A stretch of 60,000 bases of DNA, taken from contig CM119372.1 in assembly GCA_051294905.1 (NCBI GenBank), forward strand, positions 21,206,001-21,266,000, given 5' to 3'. The first letter of the stretch is position 1. Each line of letters starts with the position of its first letter. Positions 1 to 42,300 of the stretch are shown here, piece after piece. The notes beneath the pieces were generated by a model. That model worked only from the letters and a program-made list of their open reading frames with translations. It ran no database searches and was not told the DNA's origin. The position numbers were made by a program, and so were the translations under genes. The DNA comes from Botryllus schlosseri. Its lineage: Eukaryota.

Positions 1-60
1 GAAAATGTGTGGAGTCGGAGCCGGAGTCGATGGTAAAATTTACCGACTCCACAGCCCTGG

Positions 61-512: not shown

Positions 513-799
513 AGAAATATATCACCATCTCCACAAGTGTCATTGAACCCTGTGAGCAGTGTACCCTAAAGCGGTGAGTGTAAAGTACTGAAACTCGACA
601 CCGTGCCACTGCTAGCAATGATTGCACAAATTGTTCAGATTACAATATCTGCGTCCAAGTGGGGAAACACTGATATATAGAGGCAAAAGTGTCCAGTAGC
701 TATTTAGGACACCAGATCTCCCCTACCGCGCTCCAGAGCTCATCAAATTTGGTGGACCAATATCAGCAGGAAGAAGATATACTGGCATTTCCAGCAGTC

Positions 800-1600: not shown

Positions 1601-1605
1601 AATTC

Positions 1606-3780: not shown

Positions 3781-4147
3781 AATGGCAGCGCAAATTTCAG
3801 TACCTCGATCGCGCGCTTCTGCTAAGATACCGGTCCCATGGTGGAACGAAGACTGCGCCCGGGCAGTACGCCGCAAGAAAGCAGCCTTTCAAAAAATGAA
3901 GAGAACGTTTGCCATGACGGAGGTGGTACCTTTCAAGTAAGTGCGATCAGAATGCCGCAAAATTATATCATCAGCTTAACGAAAATGCTGGGAGGATTTC
4001 TGTGATTCGATCAATCTGAAAACGAGCTCTTCTAGGATCTGGAAAACAATTGCAGCCGTGTGCGGTTCCACGACACACCGCACCATGCCGACGATACACT
4101 CCGGGGACAACAGTTACCATGACGACAAATCTAAAGCACCTATTTTC

Positions 4148-8140: not shown

Positions 8141-8148
8141 ATCTAAAG

Positions 8149-9370
8149 CAGTGCTTCTCAACCTTTTTCAGTTCGCGACCCACTTTTCATCCAAATTTCA
8201 TTGCGCGACCCACTAGATGCCCTTTCGCGATTAACGTTTAAACCACTGCTCGTGGGTGCCCGTTTTTATGTTGTAAGTGTGTTACAGTTATCTGGTCGCA
8301 CCTAGCGTGAATATTTTCCGGAATTCATGATGGCATTTGGTCCATGATATTGCCAATTACATATACTACTATGAATTTTTGGCGACAGCGATATTCGGAG
8401 ACAGCCATTTAGGCGCCTACCGTATATAGTCCATGGACAATTCGGCATACATATACCGAAGGTTTAGATCCTTTTCGGCAGAGGTTTTCTCACTGTCGAC
8501 CTTTTTTGCTGCACAATTCACGGAGTCGCATGTTGGCCGAAACTTCATATGTCTTTGTGTGTCGTGGCGCGGTAATGGCCGACACCGAAAGGTCTATTTC
8601 TATAAATTATGCGTATTATTCTATTAGATAGATGGGCATACCGCCGCTATTAAAACCAAGATATCTAACGATGCCAATTGGCGACACGCGCTAAGAAAAT
8701 TTGAAAGAAGTTTAATAACTCTCCAAACAAATACTCTATAATTTATGTTGATTCATGAGATTATTTTGTCCCCTCTTCAAGCTCGATGCACCAATTGGGG
8801 GATTAGGGTGGGGCAGTTAAAATTCTGCTCGGCCTGGTGTAAATGACCATTGTAGTAGAAAAACACCATGAATACCACAAACAACAACAGACGAGCAAAC
8901 GCGTATCTAATCAGCCATTCGTGTTTACGTCTAACACAAAGGCCAAAGGGGTTATGAGTAACTTGCGTTGCTGCAATTGTTTGCTGACTACAACGACAAA
9001 TCGGGCTGGATTTCTGCATTTCCATATCAACGTTAACAAAGCCTTTGGAGGAAAGAATGAATTTCAATCTCAAGCATACACAATTACGCACGGTCGGATT
9101 TCACGCAGCAACCAATATGACTGTGACGAAAATCTGGCTCACGAATTATTGTTAGCACGGCAACGTGGTTTGTAGCGATTATGGGCGCAAAACAATTTAA
9201 TTTGGAGGAGAATGTGCATTAACTCTTCTAATCTTGACAATGTAAAGTGTCTAGATTGAATAGTTGGAAAATTGAATACGAAAGTGTAACAGTTAAAACG
9301 TCTTCGCGGCCCACCTAAAACAGCTTCGCGGCTCACTGGTGGGTCGCGACCCACCGGATGAGAAGCACTG
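8149..9370. mobile_element. hAT (Charlie-like) MITE abutting the previous one
   Basis: TIR CAGTGCTTCTCA / TGAGAAGCACTG; flanked by ATCTAAAG on both sides. Confidence 0.9.
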
Positions 9371-15300: not shown

Positions 15301-18300
15301 ATGTTTGGGCTGCTGAGTCCGAAAATGACATCCGATTCTTTGAATTGGCTGAGAGTTTTGGCCCTGAAGTGAAATTCTATTCTGAAAGTATTGAAAAATT
15401 TATGCGTCACAGAATAAATCCAAGTTTGCCAACCTGAGAAAGATGGACATGAAACCACTGTTCCCTTTAATCTGCGCGCGTGCGCAATTGCGCAGTGCTG
15501 GCATGATCTCAGCGCACAGAAAATCTAAGCTGCGCACGCGCAAAAGAAAAGCCGAAGTGATGACCTTTTTTTAAGTCGTTACGTACTGTTGTCCAAGGGA
15601 CCACGCTATGAGTTGGTGAGTGCGCGCAAGCTCGTGAAAAATTAGAAGGAACATTACATGAAACTACTTGCTCTGTTCTCGTCTACATACATTTTCGACC
15701 ATGAACAATTGAACATTATTGCGCAAAGACTGCGTTCCAAAATAACTGATGTCCACGTGCAGTGCAGGGTTTCTACATACGACATGCAGCCAGAGCTCAA
15801 AGAACTTGGTGACAACTTTGACCGACCACAGCTGTCTGATTGATTCATTAAACACTGTTTTTGGTCTCTATACTTAAACTTGAATATATAAATTAAATAC
15901 GATTTATTCCTTGTATAGGTGAATAAATACGCGATGAATGGATATATTCTGTAATTCGGGCCGCCAAGTATTCCATATTCACATATATGGCCCGCCGACC
16001 GGAGAAGTTGCCCGCCCGCTTCATTTATTCGTTAAGACTTGCGATCTATCGGTGATGTCCTCCAAGAGACCACGACATCGACTAAAATTGGGTATAAAAC
16101 TGGTAGAGCGCTCAACCCTTGTCTGGTTTCTAGACAGCAATACATTAAGAATGCGTCAATCACAAGCCTCGTGTAAGACCTTTGCGTCTGCAGAATAATG
16201 GGATGCTAGCATAACATAACATTTTGAAAACGGTGCAATCGGTTTTGCAAGCGCGTCGCAAATAGAAATGTACAGGCTGCGTAAATCCAGGTTAATCTGG
16301 TCCAGAGTATTTCTATTTCAGACGGTGTGGCTGATACTGGATTACTCGGCCGATTTCATTTACGTCATGGACTTCGGGGTGCAGCTCCGGACCGGATACT
16401 TGGAGAACGGCCTTCTTGTGTACGACAGCTCGAAGCTCGCTCGGAATTATATCTTTTCAAGATGGTTCATCGTGGACCTTCTTTCTCTCACTCCGCTGGA
16501 CATTTACTTTCTCATCACTGGGACGGTTTATCCTATTTTTAGATTTCCGCGCTTCCTAAAGATTTACCGTGCCAAAGCATTCGCAAGGTTAGAATCGCTG
16601 CTACGTACATGTGTGATGATGATTGTTGATTAATACGAAGGGGATTGGCAAAATCAAGCCAAATCCGATTCGAATTGTACTCCAATAATCAGACTTGTAT
16701 CGAATCCATTCAGTGATTTAATACCCGAGAGAGAGAGAGAGTCACCCGATCAATATAAATTTTGCGGATATGTCATTTTAAAAGTGGTCTGGTGCACGAA
16801 GACCATAGTAGTCAAGCAACATCAACCCCGCATGCAACGACCCAAGATAGAATACCAATTTACTCCTTCAGAATAACAATGTAGCATGCATGTCCCATCG
16901 CAATGGACTCGCGCAGACCAGTTAACATGGTTATTGTGAGCTTCGAATCAAAACAGAAAACAACACAGATTTTAAAATTTTGAAAGCTTTTTTTCATGTC
17001 TCATAGCCACGCTCACCTACAAATGAAAATAGCATTCAAGGTTGCAATATTTTGGCGTACTACATTGCTGAAATTCTTCGAACCTATACTGTGCGTGTTG
17101 CTATTGTACTTGAGTAGCCATCGTGTTTCATGTACTTGTACCATTTGCAAAGTGTAATCAGCTATTGATAAACTTGAAATGCAAATGCGTATGTTATTTC
17201 TTACGCCGTTCGTGTCAAACAGCATTTGCTACTCGATCATCCAAATGTCTCTCATCGAACAGGCGTGCCGAATCCCGTACGTCATATCCAAACATGTTAC
17301 GGGTCGCGAATCTGTGTCACATGCTGCTGTTGCTCATGCATTGGTTTGCATGCTTTTATTACATGATCAGCGAATCGGAGGGATTTTTAGTCCCAGAGGG
17401 TACGTTATGTTGAAATATTGCTATGATTAATGATGCGTATCTAAGGCAGTGCTTCTCAGCCAACCTGTTTCAATTCCCGACGCACTTTTAATGCAAATTG
17501 AATTGTGCGACCCACAATCAGATATAGGCAATCGAATGAAAATCAAATTAATGAGAAAACATATCCAATTTACTATCAATGCGAATATTGAGCGTGCATC
17601 TTAGGCATTATCAGATAAATACTCGGCTCGATTGGAGAAAATCGCACAAGCAACGTATCATTAAGTCATTTAGGGAGCGTCCGTTTTCAGGCTGTTCCGA
17701 GCCTTGCATTTGGTTACTGCAGCAGTTGAGAAGCCGGACTCACAAAAGGTATATACACTATGCAGTGGTGAAAGGCAAGAGAAAATTGATGGCGCTCTCT
17801 ACGGTATAGGCTATTGAATAGATAACTAACATCCAGAAATTATTCGCGACCCATCGGAAGTTGCTTAACGACCCACCGATGGGTCGCGACCCACTGGCTG
17901 GGAAGCACTGTGTTAAGCGTAAAATTATGCCTATGCTTATAGATGTGGGGTCTAGAAGGGTACATGCCGAGGTATAGGTGTTTATGCTACTCATAATTTT
18001 GTATCAAAGATTTTTTAAATTTCTTGAAAACTGAGTTGCGTATTTGATTAGGAGACGTCGCGAAGTCATTTCAACTGCATTCTTCCTATTTATTTTCATA
18101 TAATCGATATTGTGTTGCTCTCTCAGGTCACGGTAATTATTTAATGATTACGCGTGATAGTTGAGCATTAGGGCTCTTCAAAAATGACTTTTTTTTCTCA
18201 AATCGCACTGGCTACTTGATAAAATTGTTAGGTTACCTAATTTAAGCCTGCACATCAAATTTGGTTCAATTCCAACCAGTAGCCGCATTGCTACATGAGA

Positions 18301-21300: not shown

Positions 21301-24300
21301 ATGTCAATAATATTGGTTCTTCCATAAATTACTGTATAATTTTGATCCTCTCTCCGCCCACATGACCAGAGTTAGCGATAGAGCTGGTGAACGATGATGA
21401 CTTTGAAAATGCAAGGAGGTTAATCGTTCATCGTTAAGTCATGTTCATATCACATCGATAAAATTATTTATCAGCCTAATGCCGGTGCGCACTGAATCAC
21501 TGAGATATATAAACACCGCACATCCAGTGGTTTCCAACCTTTTATGGTCGCGAGTCCATTTCCAATTTGCCGTGGCCCAGCTCCAAATTTGACAAGCTGA
21601 TTACTAGATTAAGGTCGGCAAATTTGCCCAGACTTAGTCACAGCCTATTTTGGAAGCTGACTACGTTCAACATATTCGCGAATCCCAGAATAAAGGCAAA
21701 CTACCGCCAGGTTTAGAACCACCATCATTGAATAAAGCATCCAAACGGTCTACACCAGGGGTGGGCAAACTACGGCCCGCGGGCCGCATGCGGCCCGCGA
21801 GAGTCTAAAGAAACTTATTGAAAATATTGATCAAATGCGTACTAAAAATCGAATTAATGCATAAACTTTTCCTTAGTATATTTCACCATGGTAAATCTAA
21901 GGAAGTGGGTCTCAGCCTCGGGGCCGCGTGCCCCTTGGGGTCATGAAAACATCTGAAATTGGATCGCAAAGCTGAACTTAACTGAAAATTTTTTCGCGCT
22001 TCGCGCGATTTCTTCCAATTCCTGGTTAGTGCTCTGTATTTAGTATGAATTTCATATTTAAAAATCTCTCATCAATAGTCGTAACCTTCCATGCCACCAA
22101 ACAATCCGTTAGGTTTGCTATAGCATCCTGATTGCGTTTTGTGATATGACGATAAGGGGGCGGGAAATCTACACATATAGTAGAAGCGTGTTTGAAGCTA
22201 ACATGGGTATGATGCTGTCAGCATTGTGTGTCCTGGAACTGAACCCAAAGCGGAATTAGTAAATCTATGAACTGATCACTTCTCACAGATTTAAATTTCA
22301 ATCCTGTTCTAACAATCGGGACAACTGACTTTCATCTCTATAGTTTTGACAAATTGGTTATTGAGGTCGACCAGCCTATGAAATCTCGCAATTGTTTCTG
22401 GTGCGTGTACGATATCATAGCAATATGTTTGGTTTGTTTCAAATAAGCATATATATTATCTCCCTGTCCTCACTATATAATCAATTACCAGCAATATGCC
22501 GTTTTGGTCTATGGTCCCAATTTTATGTAGTGCGGCCCGCGAATGGATTCAGATGTTGAATGCGGCCCGCGAGCTCAAAAGTTTGCCCACCCCTGGTCTA
22601 CACCGACTCTATGAATATACCGTTATCTTGTAATTGCGATTACAATTAGACATATTTCTGTAAATGAATGCTATTTTTATTTAATTTTGATCGCGGTTTT
22701 TGCGAGGCTGATAGTCCCCATATTAAAACTAATATATCTGATGCTAAATCGCGCGCTGCGCGAAGAAAAATTGCATGTAACATAAATCTGCCCAATAATA
22801 ATATTGTTTTTTTTGATTCATGAAAAGAATTATGAGCTTACTTCAAGCCTTCAAAATTCCGGACATTTGGGCATATTTTAGAAATTCCTCCCGGACGCAG
22901 TTGTAATGGTGAAATTCCGGACATGTCCGGGAAATTCCGGACGTATGGCAACCCTAGGCTAAGTGGCATTCTTCCGTTCCGTCAGACAAATTATTATCTT
23001 AGACCAGTGCTTTTCAACCTTTTTGAGCTCCGTTCGCACTTTTTTTGTAAAATAAATTTCATTCGCACAAACTAATCGAAAATTGTTATACAAAAAGAAG
23101 ATGAAGATAGGAGTAGTGAGGCTAAGGAACTTTGTTACCGTCCAATCAGAGAGCGCCACGTCATCCTAATTGCCACGCCCATTTTCATGCCCTAAGGGTA
23201 CATTCATCTGCTACGTCATCTGTGCCACATCATCAAGCGCCACGCCTATAGTGCCACATCATCCATCCATTGCTATATCATCGCTGCATTGATTGCCGCA
23301 TCTTGATACTTTTCTCAGATATTGTATTATGTGTATTTAGGACTAATATCATCCGTCCATATTTTTTAAACTTTATTTTATGTGTACAAGTTACGGTTTC
23401 TGCAGTTTCCACATTTTACGACTTATGATTGCCGCGTCAAATCTTACCTTAGCTAGAATCGACAGATTTTCTATTATGTGTATTTAGGACTATGTATTTA
23501 AATTCCTATTCAGATTATACATAAATGCGAAAACTATGATGTCTATGCAAGGCTATATTCTCCGGATAATATTATTAATATCAAAATTCTACACATCATC
23601 ACTAATTACTTAATATAAAATCCGATTTTGAGCGCTGCGACTTGATAATATGAATCCCTACGCTTCTGATGCATGATTTTTTGCGATAAGGACCCAGGTA
23701 ACATTCAGAGTCTGCAACGATTGTTTGGATATACATTATAGCAATACCCCACTAAACTATAGGCGGTTATATTACTCTATTGGTCAGAGATAACTCATCC
23801 TTCCATATTTTTAAACTTGATTTTATGTATACAAGTTACGCTCTCTGCAGCCCCACATTTTACGAATTATTTTCATTAGACGCAGGCAAGCGATTCTCCA
23901 GTTCGGAGGTACGGAAACAAATCACTCGCATGTGCGCGTTCCGAATAGTCTTGCAGAATTTTCTAAAGTCGTAACAGCTTAGTAGCATATACGCGAATCC
24001 CAAGGTGAAAATAATCGAACGAGCTATAGCCGCAGGCGTGCGATTCGCAGGGCTTTATTTATACAAACACTTTCGATGCCTGTACGCGAACCCCAGCGTT
24101 ATAACGATTAGGTCTAATTAGCACGTTCTGAAGCCGTAAATTTAGTCAACATCATTGAGATGTCCATGATTTAAATATGGTGATCGAGTGTGACAATAGC
24201 ACTCGTCAAGGTTAGACAAACATAACCTTAAACTACTCTCTACTTCACAAAATATAAAGAACGAACACCTTCGCCGCAGGTACGCGATCCTCGACGTTAT

Positions 24301-27300
24301 AATGATAGTGCCAAATTAGCCGCATGAAAGCGAGTCTAATGAATATAACGACAGACACCAAGTTAGTTGAAAAGTAAAACTAATCGTGACCGATGCAAGA
24401 CGGATTGAAACAGCGCTTTCGCTCGATTCTTGTAGTGACCACATTTCATACGGTTCAGTCCTTTTCATGTCACTAGAATAAGGGTGAATAAACCGACAGT
24501 GAAACGCCGCCGACGTCTTATAACGTAATAATGTAAGCTGCGTCGGGTGCTGCTATAATGTTAGGAGCGAATATAGTAGAAAGTCCACGTCTGGACACCT
24601 GTAAGCAGCTGCGCATACTACCGTAGTAAAACGCATAGCAGAATTCACGAAAAAGTCGATATTGCTTTGTGATGATTTTGATGTTGTTCCATACCGATTG
24701 GGAATATAGGACTCCTAATTCCTTAACTAACTACATAATCCCTAGTAACGTAGTCAGACGCATAACGGAATTTACGCAAATCGGTATTGCTCTGCGATAA
24801 TTTTGACCACTATGTTTTGATAATAACTTGCTTCCGAGAAATAGATAACATTCATTATACGTTAGATGATACTTTTCCTTTATATTCTATTATGTGTATT
24901 TAGGGCTAATGCGACATCACTATTGATCTTTTTCCTTTATATTCTATTATGTGTATTTAGGGCTAATGCGACATCACTATGTTGGCGACAGGCCTGATTT
25001 GAACACGCTAATTTTGCAAATTAAACTTATCACCCACCACGAACACTCAATGAAGAGCACCCTGGAGCACTCACATAAATGCTCCACAATTTGTGACGTA
25101 TAATATACTGAGCATATAATAAGCTGACAAAACTGATACTTGAGTACTCCGAAATGAACAAGTATTTTACCTTTACACGACGTTTTTGTAAAATGAATAC
25201 TAATGGTACGCGAATGATCATAGACTAAGCTTGCTTTCAGAGTTGGAAACTAAATGCATATGAAAATTTAACTATGTTTTCCCCTCACGCATCAGATGTA
25301 GGCCTACTCAAGTGTTTATGAGGCGGCGAAGAGTTCGAAGGTTGTTGGTATGCAAGGACGTCACATAGAATTGTGGAGTTTTCTGTAAACTATAATCCAG
25401 TGATCTATTTTCAATCACTATACTTTTATTAATCTAAACTAAGTACTGTTAGTAGGCAAATCCTAGAAAAGTATCCTCTGATAAAAGCAGGAGTAATTCG
25501 TTATCTGTGAAATAAATATATAGCGCGCAATATGAGCGGTGTTACGATGACTGACAAATACTTTGAATTAATGCATAGAAGTAGCGATTTCGAACTACGT
25601 AAAACGTTAGTCGAGCTCACGCATTTTCCATTTTCAAAAGTTGACGTTTTTTGTAAAATGAATAATAATTTTAATAAAAAATAAAAAAGAGCGAAAAATT
25701 ACATTTTATCTCGGAACGCAACAAGAAAAATCGTATGAACTTGTAAACTACTTATTTATGACATAATAATAATTCTACTTGTACACTTATTCACATTTTA
25801 TAACACTTTTAGTAATACTTAACGGTTTCAGTTTTAAATAAAACTCGGAATATAAACTAATCGAAAAATTCGGTAACCAATTTCGCGTAGGCTATGCATA
25901 CAGATGAGGGAAGTTACATCAACGCGTGTTAACTAGTTGTATTATGTAGCTTGTAATTCATGCAAGTTTCGAAACTTCTACACCGAGTCTTTTTAAAGTA
26001 GATAGAAACGAAAAACAATTACGCCTTAGCTATGCATACAAATGAGGAAAGTTCCATCAACGCGTGTTAACTAGTTGTATCGAGTTATCGAATGAGTTTT
26101 TTCCTTACATCAAAACAACTAGAATGTGTAACTACATTAAAAAACGTTCCTAACCCTTAACGCACCCGCGATAAATCGTACAAGCAACAAGTTTCGAGTA
26201 ATCGAAATCGCGCCCCCTGAATTCAAAGCTTATTTCGAGATCTAAGCTACTTTGAAAATGAGGATCCTAGGATTTGCTTGAGTTTCATCTATATTTTACA
26301 ATGCGTTTTCGCGTTCCAGAATGACTTATGTCAATGAAAAATAGCCATTGATCATGGTTTTGTTTTTGAAAGATGTCGCGATGCCGGTGAATTTTATAGT
26401 TCTTGTAAAAAGTTGTTTGTACACAATATATGTTTAAAGTAAGTCCTACGCATTCATGATTTCGTCCGAGTTCGTATTTTAGTAATATATACTAATTTAC
26501 GATAGCGCGTTTGTAACTTGTGCAAGTACAGGAATATCATAGTTCTTGAACCGTGCTCAATGCTTAATAGAGCATTTTTGCTATTTTTCATCGCCATAAG
26601 TCATTCTGGACCGCGTAAACGCATCGTACGATATAGATGAAAGTTATGCAAATCCTAGGATCCTCATTTTCAAAGTAGCTAAGATCTCGAAATAAGCTCT
26701 GACTTGCTATTCTCCTCAAAGCATGGAATTATCAAGAGTATCACCTTCGATCACTAAAGAAACGGATGAAATTATATTCGAAGCATATTCCTTGACCAGG
26801 AATTTTATCATGTACGAACTCGACGGCTCATGCGTTAAGGTAAATACGAAAGCAGAGAGAACCTTACGTCGAGTTGGGGATGAAATATTCGAGCGACATC
26901 GAACTGTCCTAAACGCAGTCTCCAAACGTCTCCGCTATTTGCACTTTTTCACATTTTATAACACCTTAAGTAGTACTTAACAGTTTTAGTTTTAAATAAA
27001 ATACGGAATATAAACTAATCGAAAAATTCGGTTTTTGGGTGCATCTGTTTTGCGGGGGCGTATAGCACGTAGCTATACATAGTCAACTTTAATAACTGAA
27101 TTACCATGCTTAACATTGAATCCCAACTCTAAACTTGATACGTAGATGTAGGACATTATGGCAATGCACCATGCTAAATTTCATCACACATCTAATGATG
27201 GAACACCTTTAAAACTAACGCAGTCGAATACCGACTTTTACGCGTATCTGTTTTGCGTGAACTTAGCATATACCTATACATAGTCAATTTTAATAGCAGA

Positions 27301-30300
27301 ATTACCGTGTTAAACATTGAATTCCCACCTTGAAAGTTGGTACGCGGTTATAGGACATTATAAAAATGCACCATACCAAATCCCATCAGACATTTCATGA
27401 TGGAACAACTTTAAAACTAACGCGGCTCTACATCGACTTTTTGCGTACATCTGTTTTGCGGGAGCGTATAGCACGTACCCATACATAGCCAACTTTAATA
27501 ACGGAATTACCATGCATTGAATCCCAACTCTAAACTTGATACGTAGTTGTAGGGCATTATGGCTATGCACCATGCTAAATTTCATCACACATCTAATGAT
27601 GGAACACCTTTGAAACTATCGCAGTCGAATACCGACTTTTACGCATATCTGTTTTTCGTGAACATAGCATATACCCATACATAGTCAATTTTAATAACAG
27701 AATTAGCATGCTAAACATTAAATTCTCACCTTGAACGTTGGTACGCAGTTGTAGGACATAATAACAATGCACCATACCGAATTTCGTCAGACATTTCATG
27801 ATGTAACACCTTCAAAACCAACGCAGTTCTATACAGACTTTTGGCTAAATCTGTTTTTCCGTAGCGTAGCACGTACCTAAACATAGTCAACTTTATTAAC
27901 GGAATTACCATGTTAATATTCGACTCCCTACCTTGAAACTCGGTACGCAGTTGTAAGACATTATGACAATGCACCATGTCAAATTTTGCAAGTACTTTAT
28001 CTTTACACGACGTTTTTTGTAAAATGAATACTAATTTTATTGAAAAAATAAAAAATAACAAAGAGCGAAAAATAACATTATATCCCGGAACGCAACAAGA
28101 AAAATCGTATGAATTTGTAAACTACTTGTTCATGACATAATAATAATTCTACTTGTACGCTTTTTCACATTTTATAACACTTTAAGTAATACTTAACAGT
28201 TTCAGTTTTAAATAAAAGACGGAATATAAACTAATCGAAAAATTCGGTAACCAATTTCGCGTAGGCTATGCATGCATACAAATGAGGAAAGTTACATCAA
28301 CGCGTGTTAAAGTAGCTGTATCGAGTTATCGAATGATTTTCTCCTTACATCAAAACAACTAGAATGTATAACTAAATTTAAAAACGTACCTAAATGAGCT
28401 CCAGGGCATTGTGATTATGCTGCATACCAAATTTCATCACACATTTCATGATGGAACAACATTAAAACTAACGCAGTTCTATAGCAACTTTTGCCTAAAT
28501 CTGTTTTCGGTAGCGTGTACATATACATAGTCAGAATTATCATGCTAATATGTGACTCCTCACCTTGAAACTTGGTACGTAGTTGTAGGACATTGTGATT
28601 ATGCAGCATACCAAATTTCCTCACGCATTTCATAATGGAACAACTTTAAAACTAACGCGGTTCTACATCGACTTTTTGCGTACATCTGTTTTGCGTGGGG
28701 GCGTATAGCACGTACCTATACATAGTTAACTTTAACAACGGAATTACCATGCTTAACATTAAATCCCAACTCGAAACTTGATACGTAGTTGTAGAACGTT
28801 ATGGCAATGCACCATGCTAAATTTCATCACACATCTAATGATGGAACACCTTTAAAACTAACGCAGTCGAATACCGACTTTTACGCATATCTGTTTTGCG
28901 TGAACATAGCATATACCTATACATAGTCAATTTTAATAGCAGAATTACCGTGTTAAACATTGAATTCCCACCTTGAAAGTTGGTACGCGGTTATAGGAGA
29001 TTATAACAATGCACCATACCAAATCCCATCACACATTTCATGATGGAACAACTTTTAAACTAACGCGGCTCTACATCGACTTTTTGCGTACATCTGTTTT
29101 GTGGGAGCGTATAGCACGTAGCCTACCCATACATAGCCAACTTTAATAACGGAATTACCATGCTTAACATTGAATCCCAACTCGAAACTTGATACGTAGT
29201 TATAGGACATTATGGCAATTCACCATGCTAAATTTCATCACACATCTAATGATGGAACACCTTTGAAACTATCGCAGTCGAATACCAACTTTTACGCATA
29301 TCTGTTTTTCGTGAACATAGCATATACCCATACATAGTCAATTTTAATAACAGAATTAGCATGCTAAACATTAAATTCTCACCTTGAACGTTGATACGCG
29401 GTTGTAGGACATAATAACAATGCACCATACCAAATTTCGTCAGACATTTCATGATGTAACACCCTTAAAACTAACGCAGTTCTATACCAACTTCGCGTGA
29501 ATCTGTTTGCGGGAGCGTAGCACGTACCTATGCGTGATCAACTTTAGTGATGGAATTACATATGTAATTAAGTTTCAACACTTTTACAATGATTCGTCTT
29601 GCTTCCTATAAAATCCCACTCGAGAAAATGCGTCGTAGGATATAGATGAAACTAGCACAACTCATCAAGACCGCTGAAAACAGTACATTTCAACATTTAG
29701 TAGCAGTAAATTTCTAGTAAAGTACAAGACGTGATGATTTCCGAGTGAGTTAAAAAGTAAGTATTGCAGGTATAGTTTACCTGAAAACCGAATACTCTGA
29801 AATAGAAGTAGATGCAGTGTAAATAGTTAATCACTTGATTAAGTTTAGTGCAAGCAGATAAAACCTATACTTGAGTAGTACAAAATGCACGAGTACTTCG
29901 CTATCGCCTCCCTCCACGTAATAAGTGTCTACGGTTTAAGACTGCTTTTACCGATACTCGTCGGTTTCAGTTTTAGATAGAATTCGGAAACCAAATAATT
30001 TCATAAACATAAGCTAATTTAATGAATTTACTCGAATGTACTATGCCGCGCTGATAAGATTAATTATAATATACTTATCATGTTACAGCGATTTTTCTAG
30101 CGTAGAAAATCTTTAAAATGTAGTAAGCAGGCCAAATGAAGATATTCGTTGAGGTGAATAAACATAAAAAATACTCTAGACTACTTTATCGGTACTTTAC
30201 AGTTACAGTTTTAGATAAAATTTGTCCCTTTCACCTATAATTACAACTCCTCGCTATCTAAACATGTTTAGAATATATTATTTGCGATGATACGAACCCG

Positions 30301-33300
30301 TGAAGTACTCAAGTTGCTTTTCGTAGGATATAGATGAAACTGACAACACTCACCAAGACCAGTGATCCACCGAAAAAAGTAAATTGTAGCAGTAAAGTCC
30401 CACTAAAGTACAAGAAGTCATGATTTCCCAGTCAGTTAAAAAGTAAGTATTGAGGTATAGTTTGGTCGAAAAAGCGAAAAACTCTGAAATAGAAGTAGAT
30501 GCAGTGTAAATAGGTAATCACTTCATTAAGTATAGCGCAAGCAGGCCAAACCTATACTTAAGTACTGCAAATGTACAAGTACTTCGCTATGTTCTCCTTC
30601 CACGTAAAAAGTGACTAGGTTTTAGAGTACTTTATCGGTACTCGACAGTTTCAGTGTTAGATAAAATTTGGTAAGACTTTAAATTTTAAAGTAGTTTGAG
30701 CTTACGTTTGTATCACCTTGACAAGTAACATTATCAGACATGAAAATGATACTATCACCGAATATAGAAGTTAACACGCGTCAATGTGTTTCGGAATTCA
30801 CGAGAAATTGCTTACTAAGAGAAGTATATTGTTGTATACATAATAGTGGAGAGAATATTTTAAATGTAGTAAGCAGGCCGATGGGTATTCGTTTAGTTGT
30901 ATAGGCATAAAAAACATTCCCGCGCGCGTCTTAGTATTAGGTGTTTTGTTTAAGAGCGCGCGGGAATGTTTTTTATGCCTATACAACTAAACGAATACCC
31001 ATCGGCCTGCTTACTACATTTTAAATATTCTCTCCACTATTATGTATACAACAATATACTTCTCTTAGTAAGCAATTTCTCGTGAATTCCGAAACACATT
31101 GACGCGTGTTAACTTCTATATTCGGTGATAGTATCATTTTCATGTCTGATAATGTTACTTGTCAAGGTGATACAAACGTAAGCTCAAACTACTTTAAAAT
31201 TTAAAGTCTTACCAAATTTTATCTAACACTGAAACTGTCGAGTACCGATAAAGTACTCTAAAACCTAGTCACTTTTTACGTGGAAGGAGAACATAGCGAA
31301 GTACTTGTACATTTGCAGTACTTAAGTATAGGTTTGGCCTGCTTGCGCTATACTTAATGAAGTGATTACCTATTTACACTGCATCTACTTCTATTTCAGA
31401 GTTTTTCGCTTTTTCGACCAAACTATACCTCAATACTTACTTTTTAACTGACTGGGAAATCATTACTTCTTGTACTTTAGTGGGACTTTACTGCTACAAT
31501 TTACTTTTTTCAGTGGATCACTGGTCTTGGTGAGTGTTGTCAGTTTCATCTATATCCTACGAAAAGCAACTTGAGTACTTCACGGGTTCGTATCATCGCA
31601 AATAATATATTCTAAACATGTTTAGATAGCGAGGAGTTGTAATTATAGGTGAAAGGGACAAATTTTATCTAAAACTGTAACTGTAAAGTACCGATAAAGT
31701 AGTCTAGAGTATTTTTTATGTTTATTCACCTCAACGAATATCTTCATTTGGCCTGCTTACTACATTTTAAAGATTTTCTACGCTAGAAAAATCGCTGTAA
31801 CATGATAAGTATATTATAATTAATCTTATCAGCGCGGCATAGTACATTCGAGTAAATTCATTAAATTAGCTTATGTTTATGAAATTATTTGGTTTCCAAA
31901 TTCTATCTAAAACTGAAACCGACGAGTATCGGTAAAAGCAGTCTTAAACCGTAGACACTTATTACGTGGAGGGAGGCGATAGCGAAGTACTCGTGCATTT
32001 TGTACTACTCAAGTATAGGTTTTATCTGCTTGCACTAAACTTAATCAAGTGATTAACTATTTACACTGCATCTACTTCTATTTCAGAGTATTCGGTTTTC
32101 AGGTAAACTATACCTGCAATACTTACTTTTTAACTCACTCGGAAATCATCACGTCTTGTACTTTACTAGAAATTTACTGCTACTAAATGTTGAAATGTAC
32201 TGTTTTCAGCGGTCTTGATGAGTTGTGCTAGTTTCATCTATATCCTACGACGCATTTTCTCGAGTGGGATGTTATAGGAAGCAAGACGAATCATTGTAAA
32301 AGTGTTGAAACTTAATTACATATGTAATTCCATCACTAAAGTTGATCACGCATAGGTACGTGCTACGCTCCCGCAAACAGATTCACGCGAAGTTGGTATA
32401 GAACTGCGTTAGTTTTAAGGGTGTTACATCATGAAATGTCTGACGAAATTTGGTATGGTGCATTGTTATTATGTCCTACAACCGCGTATCAACGTTCAAG
32501 GTGAGAATTTAATGTTTAGCATGCTAATTCTGTTATTAAAATTGACTATGTATGGGTATATGCTATGTTCACGAAAAACAGATATGCGTAAAAGTTGGTA
32601 TTCGACTGCGATAGTTTCAAAGGTGTTCCATCATTAGATGTGTGATGAAATTTAGCATGGTGAATTGCCATAATGTCCTATAACTACGTATCAAGTTTCG
32701 AGTTGGGATTCAATGTTAAGCATGGTAATTCCGTTATTAAAGTTGGCTATGTATGGGTAGGCTACGTGCTATACGCTCCCACAAAACAGATGTACGCAAA
32801 AAGTCGATGTAGAGCCGCGTTAGTTTAAAAGTTGTTCCATCATGAAATGTGTGATGGGATTTGGTATGGTGCATTGTTATAATCTCCTATAACCGCGTAC
32901 CAACTTTCAAGGTGGGAATTCAATGTTTAACACGGTAATTCTGCTATTAAAATTGACTATGTATAGGTATATGCTATGTTCACGCAAAACAGATATGCGT
33001 AAAAGTCGGTATTCGACTGCGTTAGTTTTAAAGGTGTTCCATCATTAGATGTGTGATGAAATTTAGCATGGTGCATTGCCATAACGTTCTACAACTACGT
33101 ATCAAGTTTCGAGTTGGGATTTAATGTTAAGCATGGTAATTCCGTTGTTAAAGTTAACTATGTATAGGTACGTGCTATACGCCCCCACGCAAAACAGATG
33201 TACGCAAAAAGTCGATGTAGAACCGCGTTAGTTTTAAAGTTGTTCCATTATGAAATGCGTGAGGAAATTTGGTATGCTGCATAATCACAATGTCCTACAA

Positions 33301-36300
33301 CTACGTACCAAGTTTCAAGGTGAGGAGTCACATATTAGCATGATAATTCTGACTATGTATATGTACACGCTACCGAAAACAGATTTAGGCAAAAGTTGCT
33401 ATAGAACTGCGTTAGTTTTAATGTTGTTCCATCATGAAATGTGTGATGAAATTTGGTATGCAGCATAATCACAATGCCCTGGAGCTCATTTAGGTACGTT
33501 TTTTAATTTAGTTATACATTCTAGTTGTTTTGATGTAAGGAGAAAATCATTCGTTAACTCGATACAGCTACTTTAACACGCGTTGATGTAACTTTCCTCA
33601 TTTGTATGCATGCATAGCCTACGCGAAATTGGTTACCGAATTTTTCGATTAGTTTATATTCCGTCTTTTATTTAAAACTGAAACTGTTAAGTATTACTTA
33701 AAGTGTTATAAAATGTGAAAAAGTGTACAAGTAGAATTATTATTATGTCATGAACAAGTAGTTTACAAATTCATACGATTTTTCTTGTTGCGTTCCGGGA
33801 TATAATGTTATTTTTCGCTCTTTGTTATTTTTTATTTTTTCAATAAAATTAGTATTCATTTTACAAAAAACGTCGTGTAAAGATAAAGTACTTGCAAAAT
33901 TTGACATGGTGCATTGTCATAATGTCTTACAACTGCGTACCGAGTTTCAAGGTAGGGAGTCGAATATTAACATGGTAATTCCGTTAATAAAGTTGACTAT
34001 GTTTAGGTACGTGCTACGCTACGGAAAAACAGATTTAGCCAAAAGTCTGTATAGAACTGCGTTGGTTTTGAAGGTGTTACATCATGAAATGTCTGACGAA
34101 ATTCGGTATGGTGCATTGTTATTATGTCCTACCACTGCGTACCAACGTTCAAGGTGAGAATTTAATGTTTAGCATGCTAATTCTGTTATTATTATTGACT
34201 ATGTATGGGTATATGCTATGTTCACGAAAAACAGATATGCGTAAAAGTCGGTATTCGACTGCGATAGTTTCAAAGGTGTTCCATCATTAGATGTGTGATG
34301 AAATTTAGCATGGTGCATAGCCATAATGCCCTACAACTACGTATCAAGTTTAGAGTTGGGATTCAATGCATGGTAATTCCGTTATTAAAGTTGGCTATGT
34401 ATGGGTACGTGCTATACGCTCCCGCAAAACAGATGTACGCAAAAAGTCGATGTAGAGCCGCGTTAGTTTTAAAGTTGTTCCATCATGAAATGTCTGATGG
34501 GATTTGGTATGGTGCATTTTTATAATGTCCTATAACCGCGTACCAACTTTCAAGGTGGGAATTCAATGTTTAACACGGTAATTCTGCTATTAAAATTGAC
34601 TATGTATAGGTATATGCTAAGTTCACGCAAAACAGATACGCGTAAAAGTCGGTATTCGACTGCGTTAGTTTTAAAGGTGTTCCATCATTAGATGTGTGAT
34701 GAAATTTAGCATGGTGCATTGCCATAATGTCCTACATCTACGTATCAAGTTTAGAGTTGGGATTCAATGTTAAGCATGGTAATTCAGTTATTAAAGTTGA
34801 CTATGTATAGCTACGTGCTATACGCCCCCGCAAAACAGATGCACCCAAAAACCGAATTTTTCGATTAGTTTATATTCCGTATTTTATTTAAAACTAAAAC
34901 TGTTAAGTACTACTTAAGGTGTTATAAAATGTGAAAAAGTGCAATTAGCGGAGACGTTTGGAGACTGCGTTTAGGACAGTTCGATGTCGCTCGAATATTT
35001 CATCCCCAACTCGACGTAAGGTTCTCTCTGCTTTCGTATTTACCTTAACGCATGAGCCGTCGAGTTCGTACATGATAAAATTCCTGGTCAAGGAATATGC
35101 TTCGAATATAATTTCATCCGTTTCTTCAGTGATCGAAGGTGATACTCTTGATAATTCCACGCTTTGAGGAGAATAGCAAGTCAGAGCTTATTTCGAGATC
35201 TTAGCTACTTTGAAAATGAGGATCCTAGGATTTGCATAACTTTCATCTATATCGTACGATGCGTTTACGCGGTCCAGAATGACTTATGGCGATGAAAAAT
35301 AGCAAAAATGCTCTATTAAGCATTGAGCACGGTTCAAGAACTATGATATTCCTGTACTTGCACAAGTTACAAACGCGCTATCGTAAATTAGTATATATTA
35401 CTAAAATACGAACTCGGACGAAATCATGAATGCGTAGGACTTACTTTAAACATATATTGTGTACAAACAACTTTTTACAAGAACTATAAAATTCTCCGGC
35501 ATCGCGACATCTTTCAAAAACAAAACCATGATCAATGGCTATTTTTCATTGACATAAGTCATTCTGGAACGCGAAAACGCATTGTAAAATATAGATGAAA
35601 CTCAAGCAAATCCTAGGATCCTCATTTTCAAAGTAGCTTAGATCTCGAAATAAGCTTTGAATTCAGGGGGCGCGATTTCGATTACTCGAAACTTGTTGCT
35701 TGTACGATTTATCGCGGGTGCGTTAAGGGTTAGGAACGTTTTTTTAATGTAGTTACACATTCTAGTTGTTTTGATGTAAGGAAAAAACTCATTCGATAAC
35801 TCGATACAACTAGTTAACACGCGTTGATGGAACTTTCCTCATTTGTATGCATAGCCTAGGCGTAATTGTTTTTCGTTTCTATCTACTTTAAAAAGACTCG
35901 GTGTAGAAGTTTCGAAACTTGCATGAATTACAAGCTACATAATACAACTAGTTAACACGCGTTGATGTAACTTCCCTCATCTGTATGCATAGCCTACGCG
36001 AAATTGGTTACCGAATTTTTCGATTAGTTTATATTCCGAGTTTTATTTAAAACTGAAACCGTTAAGTATTACTAAAAGTGTTATAAAATGTGAATAAGTG
36101 TACAAGTAGAATTATTATTATGTCATAAATAAGTAGTTTACAAGTTCATACGATTTTTCTTGTTGCGTTCCGAGATAAAATGTAATTTTTCGCTCTTTTT
36201 TATTTTTTATTAAAATTATTATTCATTTTACAAAAAACGTCAACTTTTGAAAATGGAAAATGCGTGAGCTCGACTAACTTTTTACGTAGTTCGAAATCGC

Positions 36301-39300
36301 TACTTCTATGCATTAATTCAAAGTATTTGTCAGTCATCGTAACACCGCTCATATTGCGCGCTATCTATTTATTTCACAGATAACGAATTACTCCTGCTTT
36401 TATCAGAGGATACTTTTCTAGGATTTGCCTACTAACAGTACTTAGTTTAGATTAATAAAAGTATAGTGATTGAAAATAGATCACTGGATTATAGTTTACA
36501 GAAAACTCCACAATTCTATGTGACGTCCTTGCATACCAACAACCTTCGAACTATTCGCCGCCTCATAAACACTTGAGTAGGCCTACATCTGATGCGTGAG
36601 GGGAAAACATAGTTAAATTTTCATATGCATCTAGTTTCCAACTCTGAAAGCAAGCTTAGTCTATGATCATTCGCGTACCATTAGTATTCATTTTACAAAA
36701 ACGTCGTGTAAAGGTAAAATACTTGTTCATTTCGGAGTACTCAAGTATCAGTTTTGTCAGCTTATTATATGCTCAGTATATTATACGTCACAAATTGTGG
36801 AGCATTTATGTGAGTGCTCTAGGGTGCTCTTCATTGAGTGTTCGTGGTGGGTGATAAGTTTAATTTGCAAAATTAGCGTGTTCAAATCAGGCCTGTCGCC
36901 AACATAGTGATGTCGCATTAGCCCTAAATACACATAATAGAATATAAAGGAAAAGTATCATCTAACGTATAATGAACGTTATCTATTTCTCGGAAGCAAG
37001 TTATTATCAAAACATAGTGGTCAAAATTATCGCAGAGCAATACCGATTTGCGTAAATTCCGTTATGCGTCTGACTACGTTACTAGGGATTATGTAGTTAG
37101 TTAAGGAATTAGGAGTCCTATATTCCCAATCGGTATGGAACAACATCAAAATCATCACAAAGCAATATCGACTTTTGCGTGAATTCTGCTATGCGTTTTA
37201 CTACGGTAGTATGCGCAGCTGCTTACAGGTGTCCAGACGTGGACTTTCTACTATATTCGCTCCTAACATTATAGCAGCACCCGACGCAGCTTACATTATT
37301 ACGTTATAAGACGTCGGCGGCGTTTCACTGTCGGTTTATTCACCCTTATTCTAGTGACATGAAAAGGACTGAACCGTATGAAATGTGGTCACTACAAGAA
37401 TCGAGCGAAAGCGCTGTTTCAATCCGTCTTGCATCGGTCACGATTAGTTTTACTTTTCAACTAACTTGGTGTCTGTCGTTATATTCATTAGACTCGCTTT
37501 CATGCGGCTAATTTGGCACTATCATTATAACGTCGGGGATCGCGTACCTGCGGCGAAGGTGTTCGTTCTTTATATTTTGTGAAGTAGAGAGTAGTTTAAG
37601 GTTATGTTTGTCTAACCTTGACGAGTGCTATTGTCACACTCGATCACCATATTTAAATCATGGACATCTCAATGATGTTGACTAAATTTACGGCTTCAGA
37701 ACGTGCTAATTAGACCTAATCGTTATAACGCTGGGGTTCGCGTACAGGCATCGAAAGTGTTTGTATAAATAAAGCCCTGCGAATCGCACGCCTGCGGCTA
37801 TAGCTCGTTCGATTATTTTCACCTTGGGATTCGCGTATATGCTACTAAGCTGTTACGACTTTAGAAAATTCTGCAAGACTATTCGGAACGCGCACATGCG
37901 AGTGATTTGTTTCCGTACCTCCGAACTGGAGAATCGCTTGCCTGGGTCTAATGAAAATAATTCGTAAAATGTGGGGCTGCAGAGAGCGTAACTTGTATAC
38001 ATAAAATCAAGTTTAAAAATATGGAAGGATGAGTTATCTCTGACCAATAGAGTAATATAACCGCCTATAGTTTAGTGGGGTATTGCTATAATGTATATCC
38101 AAACAATCGTTGCAGACTCTGAATGTTACCTGGGTCCTTATCGCAAAAAATCATGCATCAGAAGCGTAGGGATTCATATTATCAAGTCGCAGCGCTCAAA
38201 ATCGGATTTTATATTACGTAATTAGTGATGATGTGTAGAATTTTGATATTAATAATATTATCCGGAGAATATAGCCTTGCATAGACATCATAGTTTTCGC
38301 ATTTATGTATAATCTGAATAGGAATTTAAATACATAGTCCTAAATACACATAATAGAAAATCTGTCGATTCTAGCTAAGGTAAGATTTGACGCGGCAATC
38401 ATAAGTCGTAAAATGTGGAAACTGCAGAAACCGTAACTTGTACACATAAAATAAAGTTTAAAAAATATGGACGGATGATATTAGTCCTAAATACACATAA
38501 TACAATATCTGAGAAAAGTATCAAGATGCGGCAATCAATGCAGCGATGATATAGCAATGGATGGATGATGTGGCACTATAGGCGTGGCGCTTGATGATGT
38601 GGCACAGATGACGTAGCAGATGAATGTACCCTTAGGGCATGAAAATGGGCGTGGCAATTAGGATGACGTGGCGCTCTCTGATTGGACGGTAACAAAGTTC
38701 CTTAGCCTCACTACTGATAGGCCTATACTTAACAACATTTTGTTCAGGTATGCAAAAAATTGGCTGCTATGTAGCTTAAGCTATCAAGTGTCTCATTAAA
38801 AAGGCAACTTTTTTCGCTCGTTTTGCTTTCAATTATGTCACTAAAACCCTTCTCGGCCAAACAACGTTGCTGGGAATTTGAACAAAAACGTCTACCAGTG
38901 CTTGGATAACCAGGTCTTAAAATCTGTTCTGCATTCCTATCCAAAATACAGCGTATTTTTCGCGAGTGAAAAATGCTTGCTGGCAGAAATCGTATTTGAG
39001 AGCTGACACAAAGGTCCCGCGAGGCTCCAGTTTGTCGAAAGGATGAAAAACCCACATGTTTGTGTTGAGGCTTCTGCTTTATTTCTTTGTAACATAAGGT
39101 GCAAAACGATCAGGGAGAGTAGGCACATTAGAGCTCGCTACCTCATGATACGTTGCTCCAACTTCTTTCTCGCAAGTTTATGAAAAGAGCAAATAACTCA
39201 CGCTACTCTGTGTTCTACTCTTTAGCTCAATCTAACTTGAGACTTCATGACAGTTTAATAACGGTAAAGAAGCTTTTAGACTACCACCAAAATCTGAGTT

Positions 39301-42300
39301 TTTGTGGCATCTCGCGACCCCAGCCTCACCCATGAAAATGAATTGATTTTTAATATTACAGTTGTATGCTACGATTTTACCGGCATGTATGAAATACGGA
39401 ACGCGCACACCACAATTCTACCCAACACAGCTCTACAAAACATTTTTAAATTTTAAATTTAATTTAAATTTTAAATTAGGGCGAATTCAATTCCTCTGCG
39501 TATCGCTGTTGTACCACTGTCTACTCAGATTGCAAGAACGGGACTATTCCGTGCCGACAACGGAGCATATCCAATCCATCTCGAAAAATTTGACCATCCA
39601 GCATCGGTCATTTTTAGAACGAGGTTTTGTCGCCGCTTATGTTTTTGGCACCGCATTTTATCAGCGGTTTGTTCGCCAAAACTTTACGTCTTCATGTGCC
39701 CCGACGCAGAAGGGGTTGGCCTCGAAATGAATGAGTCACATAGGCCTAAACTCGCTCGTTGCACACCCCTACAGTAACTCGTTCATCCCAACGGTCTTCG
39801 GCCATGTTTTCCAGAAAAAACAGTCGGACAAATCTTATCATGAATTCCCATGATAAAGCCATATTTCATGCGTGGCTCGCTTATTGACTACAGTACCCAA
39901 CACAGTGATCTTCTATATGTAAAAACTATCGCATGCATATTAACAGATAGCTCTGGCACCGTGTCGACCCAAAATTATACCCTTTGCGGTCCACACTTTA
40001 ATAACCCTTGAAGGGGTAAAAATTTGCGTTACAGTAACTCGCAGATGAGAGTCTGTAATGATGGTATTTACTACTATCCTCGTGCCTCGCGCAAATCGAA
40101 CCGTTATTACAAAAATATGATGATTGTTTAGCGAAAGAAAGCAGAAAGTCAATTTGGCGTGATTTTTCTAGCCGGTCGTAGGCTCGGACGAGCTGATATA
40201 CTGTATGTCTGCCACTATAGAGATTGTAGATCTGTACTGCCACTATACACCAGCTTCCAAACCAGGCTTTTGGTTACGTAATAATTTGACTGCGGGAATA
40301 CTAATTCACTACGGCATGTGAGAGGTACGATTAGTGGTGCGTCGTATTAAGTTTTTACAATTGCGTCGCAACTACAAAAGTTACACTGATCTTAAATTTC
40401 CTATTAGGTTTATTTGAATTATTTCGCGTCAGAAAAGTTAACAATTACTCAAGATTTTCATTAGCACTTGATCCGGATTTTCATTCGTACCATTTGCACT
40501 ACCTTTGTCATTCGTTGTTGATCCGGATTTTCATTCGCACTATTCGCACCACCTTCGTCATTCGCACTGTACTTATTTTCATTCGCACTAGTGCGAACCG
40601 TCACACAGGTTGAAAAGCACTGTCTTAGACTATATGTGACGATTTCTGTTTGTGACGTCAATGTGCAACTTTCTCGTTGCGTGATTGAAGAAATCGATAT
40701 TGATCTTTGAAAAACATCGGATGTTACTATTCTGGTTGGATTTATATTCAAGAATACTGCTCAACTGTATTCTACCTGAAACTTACGATTATTTTCGATG
40801 TACACGTCATTTCGTAATTGATTTCAGACATTCGAGTCATTGCCAGACATATGAACTTGAATTTAGGCATGATATCAAATGAATTTGGGATTAATATTTA
40901 CCAGCTCACATGTGCGCACACTGTGGACATTGGACAATCTCAATTTTAGTATTGAGTGTGTCCCCGTATTTGCTGTCCCGCAGGGTCTTAAAACCAGTCC
41001 ATAAAGGCTCCATAAAGGCAACAGCTATGCCTGTTCATATTAAGCATAAGCAGATAAGCATATTACATATCAGTTTACGAGGCAGGGTGTGTTTTGTTCT
41101 TGGCATTACGTGTTTTCTGACATCGTGAGGTGTTGCATATGCTCAAATCCACTCACATATGGCGATCGGGCTATACATATTCGTAACGATGCCTTCATCT
41201 GACAGGCCAAGTCGGTAACGTTATCACTAACCGCAACGTGGATAGACTGGAGTTTGAAAGACTTGTGGTGAGCTGTCGTCGATTGTTTCATGCTGGATAT
41301 AGTAATATCAATCGCAAAATTTTCCTAACAGATTCTTCTTGAGCCTTTGAATCATTGCATATGTTCGAGATTTAGGTGATAATGTCGACATGAAAAAACG
41401 TTATGATTCCATTGTTATATCACTGGCTTCTAGTTCACTAGTTCCAATATATTTTCTTCCATATATCTCATATCTAGGGAGTTTGGAATTAGAATGCAGA
41501 CACCTAGGCATTTGTAGCGATTATTATCCAGACTACAACGATAATTATCCAAACTACAACGCGTTGCACGTAAGTTCGCGACAGAGTTCACGTCTGCTTT
41601 CAGGATAATGCCAAAGTATTCATGAAAACCAAGGGGGTTTCGAAAGATATGCAAAATCGGATATTGCGCTGGTACGACTACTCGTGGTCTCGGGGAATCT
41701 TACGTGGAGCGGCTGATGTCAATGCTCTCGGAATGATACCCGACACTCTGAAAGTGGAGCTAGCCATAAGAGTCAATATGGACACATTGCGAAAAGTACG
41801 TATCCGGATTTGCGAATACGAATACGAAAACATTATGTTAAGCGCTTGATGCAATAATTGTCGGTTGAATTTCGCCATTTTACGTCACGGAAGTTCTAAC
41901 TTGCTAATCAGATTGTTTCGAGACAAATTCGACCATAGTCTAACTTCGAATAAATGATGACCTATATAAAGTGCACGTCTAGATTTCAAGTCACGAAATT
42001 AATTTATTCGCGTGAGCCGACATACATCACACCCCTCGAAATTTGTGATAAACGGTTATAGGTGTAATGCATACATACCGCGTCAATTTGTGGAATTTTG
42101 AACAGTAGTATGGGATCAATGCAGAAAAACCGCTTTGCATTTGAACTGTTGCGAAATTTCTGAGAGCAAATAATATAATGTAGCTAGTAGCGCATCCATC
42201 TCATGTCGGCATTGGTACGCTGTATCTCTTTCAGAGACTTCTACGCACTTAAAAAAACGTTTACATTTCGTCAGGTTTCAATATTCAAGCTGGTACAGCC

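Follow-up and report, generated by a model that had tools for sequence, protein, structure and literature searches.

The DNA analysed here is a stretch of 60,000 nucleotides from Botryllus schlosseri (NCBI GenBank assembly GCA_051294905.1, contig CM119372.1, positions 21,206,001 to 21,266,000 of the forward strand), to which we refer as the window; all positions below are given relative to its first nucleotide unless a locus is named. The window contains a large palindromic mobile element, and each arm of the palindrome carries a truncated open reading frame (ORF) related to the Bcl-2 family. In what follows we consider what these two frames are, where the gene came from and whether its truncated form is likely to do anything. 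The features on which the analysis is based are collected in Table 1.

The palindromic element and its two reading frames

The arms of the palindrome (23112-30927 and 30956-38715) are separated by 28 unpaired nucleotides (30928-30955), with the axis near 30941. They are 99.6% complementary and differ by about 29 mismatches and a single 57-bp indel. The termini are of the AGTAGT type, with 5'-AGTAGTGAGGC... at the ends and both ends starting AGTAGTGAGG..., and a CCAATCAG motif is located some 30-40 nt inward from each end. A direct 6-bp repeat, GATAGG, borders the palindrome on both sides, and its two ends have the same sequence; it is therefore a mobile element that has inserted here, and no fold-back of the assembly. 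Near-perfect arms and a tiny loop could also be left by a fold-back chimera of long reads; however, the target-site duplication that flanks the palindrome, the differences between its arms (both the mismatches and the indel) and the occurrence of the same architecture at dozens of independent loci leave next to no likelihood for such an assembly artefact.

The two ORFs are as the initial annotation gave them. The left one (26723-26980, + strand) begins with ATG, has 85 codons and reads ...DEIIFEAYSLTRNFIMYELDGSCVKVNTKAERTLRRVGDEIFERHRTVLNAVSKRLRY..., its last 13 codons being unrelated. The right one (34945-35160, - strand) has GTG in place of ATG and 71 codons, with a stop directly after ...KRLR, that is, just after the homology. 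The left ORF was also correctly described as entering an internal repeat, since past 26938 there follow a 91-bp module and then a 2.5-kb tandem array. The region upstream of the left ORF closes with a pyrimidine tract and then AG, one base 5' of the ATG, and this arrangement may be a putative (trans-)splice acceptor. Besides the Bcl-2 remnant, the palindrome in the window has no ORF assigned to a Pfam family and no transposition genes of its own.

Table 1. Features of the palindromic element and its borders in the window
Feature	Position	Strand	Basis or remark
Target-site duplication GATAGG, left copy	23106..23111		Flank comparison
Palindromic non-autonomous element, 15.6 kb	23112..38715		Arms, target duplication and termini
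57-bp unit, two tandem copies in left arm, one in right arm (36904-36960)	24867..24980		Sole length difference between the arms
Upstream region, 90-96% like Bcl-2-bearing sister elements	26389..26722	+	Homology
Left-arm Bcl-2 remnant, codons 1-72: alpha1, BH3 helix LRRVGDE, alpha3	26723..26938	+	Homology to full-length copies
Read-through tail of left ORF, LHFFTFYNTLSST, then stop	26939..26980	+	DNA brought in by the deletion
91-bp repeat module	26942..27032	+	Further copies at 25784-25874 and 28160-28248
Tandem-repeat array, 2.5 kb, periods of about 202 and 411 bp, mirrored in right arm	27032..29559		
Central palindromic segment, 92-94% like full-length Bcl-2-bearing elements	29621..32259		
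Right-arm Bcl-2 remnant, GTG start, TAT>TAA after codon 71	34945..35160	-	Alignment
Target-site duplication GATAGG, right copy	38716..38721		Flank comparison

Full-length relatives and membership in the Bcl-2 family

For the two window peptides Pfam returns no family at E-values up to 10. In a phmmer search of PDB, residues 40-70 of the window peptide align with the Mcl-1 stretch ...TLRRVGDGVQRNHET... at E-values of 0.7-1.4, which are not significant by themselves, and one cyclin outranks Mcl-1. A word-indexed protein search gave no match for the 71-residue piece or for a 189-residue full copy. The single-sequence AlphaFold model of the 85-residue ORF consists of two long helices and, at a predicted local distance difference test score (pLDDT) of 61.8, is too weak to judge folding.

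Much longer relatives of the peptide are present in the same genome. A six-frame search of the 495-Mb assembly with the window peptide produced 372 first-look candidates, 150 of which were scored. All 150 are 86-100% identical to the query, and nearly all of them form convergent +/- pairs 3.5-14 kb apart, distributed over many contigs. In 85 of the 150 the open frame extends far enough to include the BH2 motif, in 33 it corresponds to the window's 94-codon frame and in 32 it has some other length. The full copies that we fetched read MEL.RVSPS...TLRRVGDEMFERH...KENWGRIV...WIVRNGGW... and match the Pfam Bcl-2 family (PF00452) with E-values of 4e-22 to 6e-21 in all three cases tested (8e-22 corresponding to 78 bits, with the cut-off at 31.4). 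In a PDB sequence search, the best solved relatives of a full-length copy are Mcl-1 proteins (2.5e-12). The AlphaFold model of a full-length copy, derived from a 77-sequence alignment, has eight helices (pLDDT 83.8, predicted template modelling score 0.75), and its top Foldseek matches are all Bcl-2-family proteins, both pro-survival (NRZ, Trichoplax Bcl-2L2, Bcl-xL, A1, Mcl-1 and Bcl-2) and pro-apoptotic (BAX and BAK), with template modelling scores, normalised to the target, of 0.63-0.85. In other words, the full-length sister copies belong to the Bcl-2 family by profile, motifs and fold. The element proteins stop 7-32 residues past GGW, and no hydrophobic C-terminal tail is seen in them.

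The fragment found in both arms of the palindrome is clearly homologous to bona fide Bcl-2-family members, being 86-100% identical over 71 residues to copies that reach BH1 and BH2. Judged by its sequence, the window ORF is a genuine Bcl-2-family fragment made up of alpha1, the BH3 helix and alpha3, and its LRRVGDE motif (codons 48-54) falls on helix 43-58 in the model of the full-length relative. The initial annotation had named a chance match to LRRVGDE as the outcome that would undo its reading. This objection fails because longer relatives run on into BH1 and BH2; such homologs exist genome-wide, though the peptide alone has no profile match. The resemblance to Mcl-1 is real as well, in that the phmmer alignment of residues 40-70, non-significant alone, is upheld by the longer relatives. 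Absent from the window copy are BH1 (NWGR), BH2 (GGW) and the core helices alpha5 and alpha6, tblastn with a full-length copy matching residues 1-72 only.

Besides the loci sampled here, the genome has further lineages of Bcl-2-like loci, namely solo loci with 226/228-codon frames and paired loci with 181-codon frames. One Bcl-2-bearing palindrome has a gene for tRNA-Leu(UAA) in both arms (L011:244-327, + strand, and 9169-9252, - strand); no tRNA gene was found in the element of the window.

The gene as Polinton cargo

Two Polinton copies of the same genome were fetched (loci L030/L031/L024), and the flanks of one of them were read. Their terminal repeats are about 257 bp each, and the copy with known flanks has AGTAGT ends and is bordered by a 6-bp duplication, TACGTA. 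In both copies a 164-codon Bcl-2 ORF begins 23 nt inside the left terminal repeat and is the first gene there. Compared with the palindromic gene, it is 73% identical at the protein level and about 81% identical at the DNA level. Pfam recognises in the Polinton an rve integrase (2e-13) with a chromodomain, a Pox_A32-type ATPase (1.4e-9), UQ_con and BIR; the match to DJR-like_dom is weak (E 0.15), and no protease was matched by Pfam. Because a 73%-identical gene lies directly inside the left terminal repeat of two Polinton copies, we conclude that the Bcl-2 gene is a Polinton cargo. The 6-bp duplication, the AGTAGT ends and a CCAATCAG motif tens of bases inward recur together in all four palindromic elements and in the one Polinton checked, and the first nine residues (MELxRVSPx) are common to the Polinton and palindromic Bcl-2 proteins. 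The first of two origins offered by the initial annotation, a remnant of a gene carried by a Maverick (Polinton), is therefore borne out by the 73%-identical gene in the two Polintons together with the common duplication length and termini.

The sampled Polintons are nonetheless not the immediate source. Identity to the Polinton protein reaches 91% or more at thirteen loci, whereas the remainder of the 150 scored (of 418 candidates) do not exceed 75%. Given this gap, the sampled Polinton lineage is a cousin, and not the parent, of the palindromic gene. A pair of Polinton-type Bcl-2 genes that match the Polinton protein at 96% is found in inverted orientation 16.8 kb apart (G000:C15:11060026-11060517, + strand, and 11076841-11077332, - strand); they may belong to a Polinton carrying the gene at each end, or to a palindromic element derived from the autonomous lineage.

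As to the remaining Polinton content, the ubiquitin-conjugating enzyme (UQ_con, 2e-47) is encoded at L031:908-1378 (+) and the BIR/IAP-type protein (8e-11) at L024:5133-5537 (+). The Polinton carries two different cell-death regulators, Bcl-2 and BIR, one near each end, with BIR near the right one. Genes for tRNA-Ala(UGC) and tRNA-Pro(UGG) are located just 3' of the Polinton Bcl-2 gene (L031:778-853 and 1567-1638).

Outside this genome, an exhaustive HMMER search at E<=1e-3 returned 323 relatives, among which just one is both close and full-length: a protein of 241 residues from the ascidian Styela clava (XP_039252627, 50% identity), named bcl-2-like protein 2. It is like the element protein over residues 13-161, where the 50% identity is measured, and it has TLRRVGDE, NWGR and NGGW, but it differs in having a 57-residue N-terminal extension and a hydrophobic C-terminal tail; the element proteins do not have such a tail. 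Among 576 candidates in the B. schlosseri genome there is no near-identical copy of the Styela clava protein, the best match being 50-52%. The best genome match to the ascidian bcl-2-like protein 2, at 50%, is an unpaired locus that extends past GGW (G000:C14:19038685-19039188, - strand), a candidate host gene.

Large DNA viruses classically carry Bcl-2 homologues. Those of herpes-, pox-, irido- and asfarviruses share the fold of the element protein, and the DNA virus-like element presumably puts its own protein to the same use. Viral Bcl-2 models from BFVD, however, match the element protein much more weakly than cellular structures do (Foldseek E-values of 3.5e-4 or worse, 13-18% identity), which fits a separate, more recent capture from an animal host. 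A viral_contigs scan with the Polinton Bcl-2 protein found no relative.

These comparisons also bear on the second origin offered by the initial annotation, in which a host Bcl-2 exon would have been captured directly by a foldback transposon unrelated to Polintons. The palindrome is indeed without a Polinton hallmark gene, its closest named relative is a cellular ascidian protein, and cellular Bcl-2 structures fit the model better than the viral ones in BFVD; yet that named cellular protein is only 50% identical, and the gene found in the Polintons of the same genome, at 73%, is far closer. Moreover, the 6-bp duplication, the AGTAGT ends and the first nine residues are common to palindromes and Polintons, so that we consider direct capture of a host exon most improbable. 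On the simplest reading, a tunicate Bcl-2 gene would have been captured by an ancestral Polinton, would there have lost its anchor and would then have passed to the palindromic derivatives by inheritance.

Deletion and decay of the window copy

Homology to the full copies ends at 26938 in the left arm and at 34946 in the right arm. Compared with the closest full copy (locus L013), 635 bp have been lost, from codon 73 through to the 91-bp module downstream of the gene; in the closest full-length element this module is situated about 285 bp 3' of the Bcl-2 stop. The identical deletion junction is present in loci L002-L008, which represent five other elements, and about 16 element loci among the 150 scored relatives have a 94-codon frame at an identity of at least 96%. 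The deleted form has thus kept transposing and has spread to other sites, and therefore the gene is not needed in cis. According to the structural model, the remnant keeps alpha1-alpha3, loses alpha4-alpha8 including the core helices and cannot form the Bcl-2 fold.

When the two copies are aligned over 301 bp with four sister elements, a single change (E12K) is private to the left copy and two (ATG>GTG and TAT>TAA) are private to the right copy. The arms of the window's palindrome differ at 16 of 3213 positions, as opposed to 2 of 3213 in two sister elements. The arms in the window are drifting apart independently, as dead sequence does.

Selection and expression

To characterise selection on the gene we used the ratio of nonsynonymous to synonymous substitution rates (dN/dS), computed pairwise by the Nei-Gojobori method for 47 palindromic copies (one arm per locus, picked for long frames) and two Polinton copies. 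Second arms, all truncated copies, one copy ending before GGW and two 48-codon fragments were dropped. Between Polinton and palindromic genes dN/dS is 0.24 (dN 0.131, dS 0.536), and over all 1081 palindromic pairs it is 0.46. When the pairs are divided by distance, the ratio is 0.65 below 1.5%, 0.58 at 1.5-4% and 0.46 at 4-7%. Divergence between subfamilies amounts to 0.048 in the coding sequence, to 0.171 in the 190 bp upstream, a value possibly inflated by alignment trouble, and to 0.061 in the 200 bp downstream. At the sequence level, this pattern fits purifying selection along the multiplying lineages combined with neutral decay after insertion.

Expression was judged from a single bulk RNA-seq run, X23, of which about 6% was read. 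Fifty reads fall on 26719-26952; their likeness to the window is at least 99% in two cases, 95-99% in 11 and 90-95% in 37. Every read over 26887 has the full-length-type base, and at the junction the reads continue into full-length sequence. No X23 read crosses the truncation junction, and the depth at 26953-27050 is 0. The full-length relatives are therefore transcribed, and nothing in X23 shows transcription of the truncated form. More than half of the X23 reads come from one Bcl-2 lineage outside the sample (...MYQLDGASVK...RYSDVEVDEK, window 26795-26931). At the junction this lineage has synonymous differences, CTA AGA TAC versus CTC CGC TAT in the window, and runs on into ...SDVEVDEK.

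The initial annotation had proposed that the truncated frame, if translated, would yield a BH3-only-like product. Such an alpha1-alpha3 protein could bind the groove of full-length element or host Bcl-2 proteins and antagonise them in the manner of MCL-1S. As described in PMC11655658, MCL-1S is the exon-skipped short form of MCL-1, a regulated splice product that binds MCL-1L and for which both binding and pro-apoptotic activity have been shown. Like the window ORF, it keeps the BH3 helix and is without BH1, BH2 and the transmembrane anchor, and so it shows that an alpha1-alpha3-only product can be active. The window ORF differs in that it arose from a DNA deletion in a mobile element and bears signs of decay. 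The fragment does retain LRRVGDE together with its helix, and its frame remains open in five sister elements as well as in the left arm, but these copies are too young for an open frame to count. In addition, the right copy has lost its start and gained a stop, no X23 read passes over the junction and the single-sequence model is of low confidence. We found no positive support for a translated BH3-only-like product and regard it as very improbable.

Interpretation and alternatives

We estimate at roughly 0.8 the probability that the window ORF is a dead, 3'-truncated remnant of a Polinton cargo gene for an Mcl-1-like, probably anti-apoptotic Bcl-2 protein, and that it occurs in both arms only because its carrier is palindromic. 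The intact protein would block host-cell death during Polinton DNA replication or packaging, as viral Bcl-2 proteins do. The palindromic elements, for their part, would be gene-poor satellites moved in trans by the Polinton integrase, and they may have arisen by copy-back of one Polinton end. The truncated product would have no role even if it were made, and the two remnants in the window would do nothing.

Several points weigh against this interpretation. No Polinton lineage parental to the palindromic gene was found, and the sampled Polinton gene stands at dS 0.54 from the latter. At the nucleotide level, Polinton and palindrome are similar only within the coding sequence, as far as the GGW codon; the 500-bp terminus of the palindrome has no significant blastn match in the two Polintons, and what is shared there is AGTAGT and the CCAATCAG motif only. 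The Polinton polymerase is unconfirmed, as the 1314-codon ORF at the expected place has no Pfam or PDB sequence match, and a search of the genome with PF03175 came out empty, which says little, the control genomes being empty too. The anti-apoptotic activity is predicted from family membership only, and no membrane anchor is predicted in the protein. The dN/dS sample was chosen for long open frames and is thereby biased against nonsense changes. The left ORF and the ORFs of the sister elements are still open, though this is expected for copies that are 99% alike. Lastly, contigs of X1, X2 and X4 bridge the junction without differences and could be transcripts; these three data sets are only guessed to be RNA, and their bridging contigs were not used as evidence of expression.

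A different possibility is that the palindrome acts through RNA. If transcription ran through the convergent arms or through a host intron, the product would be a 7.8-kb perfect hairpin, from which small RNAs silencing the Bcl-2-bearing satellites, and possibly Polintons, might be made. The geometry is suitable, with arms 99.6% complementary around a 28-nt loop; the element lies between + strand ion-channel exons and so is probably transcribed as part of an intron; and hundreds of near-identical targets exist. On the other hand, X23 is nearly devoid of reads on the non-coding parts of the arms (a polyA library would miss such RNA), and no exact run common to the sampled Polinton gene and the window ORF exceeds 19 nt. 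Any such effect would also be a by-product of any palindromic element and not specific to the Bcl-2 fragment. On balance we see a hairpin role as unlikely. The particular version put forward in the initial annotation, small interfering RNAs against the host paralogue, appears unlikely from the sequence comparisons because the best match of the closest named cellular protein in this genome is only 50-52% at the protein level; whatever small RNAs there might be would find most of their matches in the sister copies that elements of the same family carry.

It could further be imagined that selection maintains the satellites as a store of several hundred functional anti-apoptotic Bcl-2 genes that aid Polinton replication or shape the host death threshold, with deletion variants serving as regulators, either as MCL-1S-like antagonists or as small-RNA hairpins. 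We view this extension as quite unlikely.

Returning to the remnant of a Polinton cargo gene, precedents for its components exist. The presence of Bcl2 and IAP homologues in adintoviruses/Polintons is mentioned in one sentence of section 3.2 of Starrett et al. 2021 (PMC8502044). The case is the same as ours in that an anti-apoptotic-type Bcl-2 gene is accessory cargo of a Polinton-class element beside an IAP (inhibitor of apoptosis)/BIR gene. Unlike it, the present system also has two convergent copies per element on a large palindromic family without Polinton hallmark genes, and the window copy is an internally deleted remnant. For giant planarian retrotransposons, PMC6431247 notes a BCL2-like domain. 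Our literature search returned nothing on Bcl-2 genes of palindromic or non-autonomous Polinton derivatives. Here a Bcl-2 gene can be traced from Polintons with integrase and packaging ATPase onto very abundant palindromic satellites, on which most sampled copies keep the frame with dN/dS below 1. The window's own "BH3-only cargo" is an ordinary deletion remnant that is already decaying, and its value lies in the family context. This genome offers a natural system for asking whether virus-like transposons need to hold off host-cell death and how an animal is affected by hundreds of additional Bcl-2 genes.

Other palindromes and the genomic setting

A genome-wide search with the terminus of the palindrome gave 1022 first-look candidates, 40 of which were scored. 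As possible autonomous parents, three large elements that share this terminus (24, 18 and 18 kb) were considered and rejected, all of them being palindromes without Polinton genes and without Bcl-2. A 149-codon ORF (IRVVSPQECDVYF...) recurs in both arms of several palindromes (L009:215-661, + strand, and 7888-8334, - strand; also in the 24-kb and 18-kb palindromes). No Pfam family matches it, and neither the window nor the Polinton contains it.

Ion-channel exon-like frames flank the palindrome on both sides (16220-16633, 17114-17413, 41574-41849 and 42253-42555, all on the + strand). One of these exons matches Ion_trans at 3e-9, and the rest resemble, by eye, a cyclic-nucleotide-gated channel. 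Because + strand ion-channel exons are found on both sides of it, the 15.6-kb element is probably located within an intron of an ion-channel gene. At the beginning of the window, positions 1-5500 contain pieces of non-LTR (long terminal repeat) retrotransposons, namely an endonuclease (Exo_endo_phos_2, 2e-15, + strand) and a reverse transcriptase (RVT_1, 5e-23, - strand).

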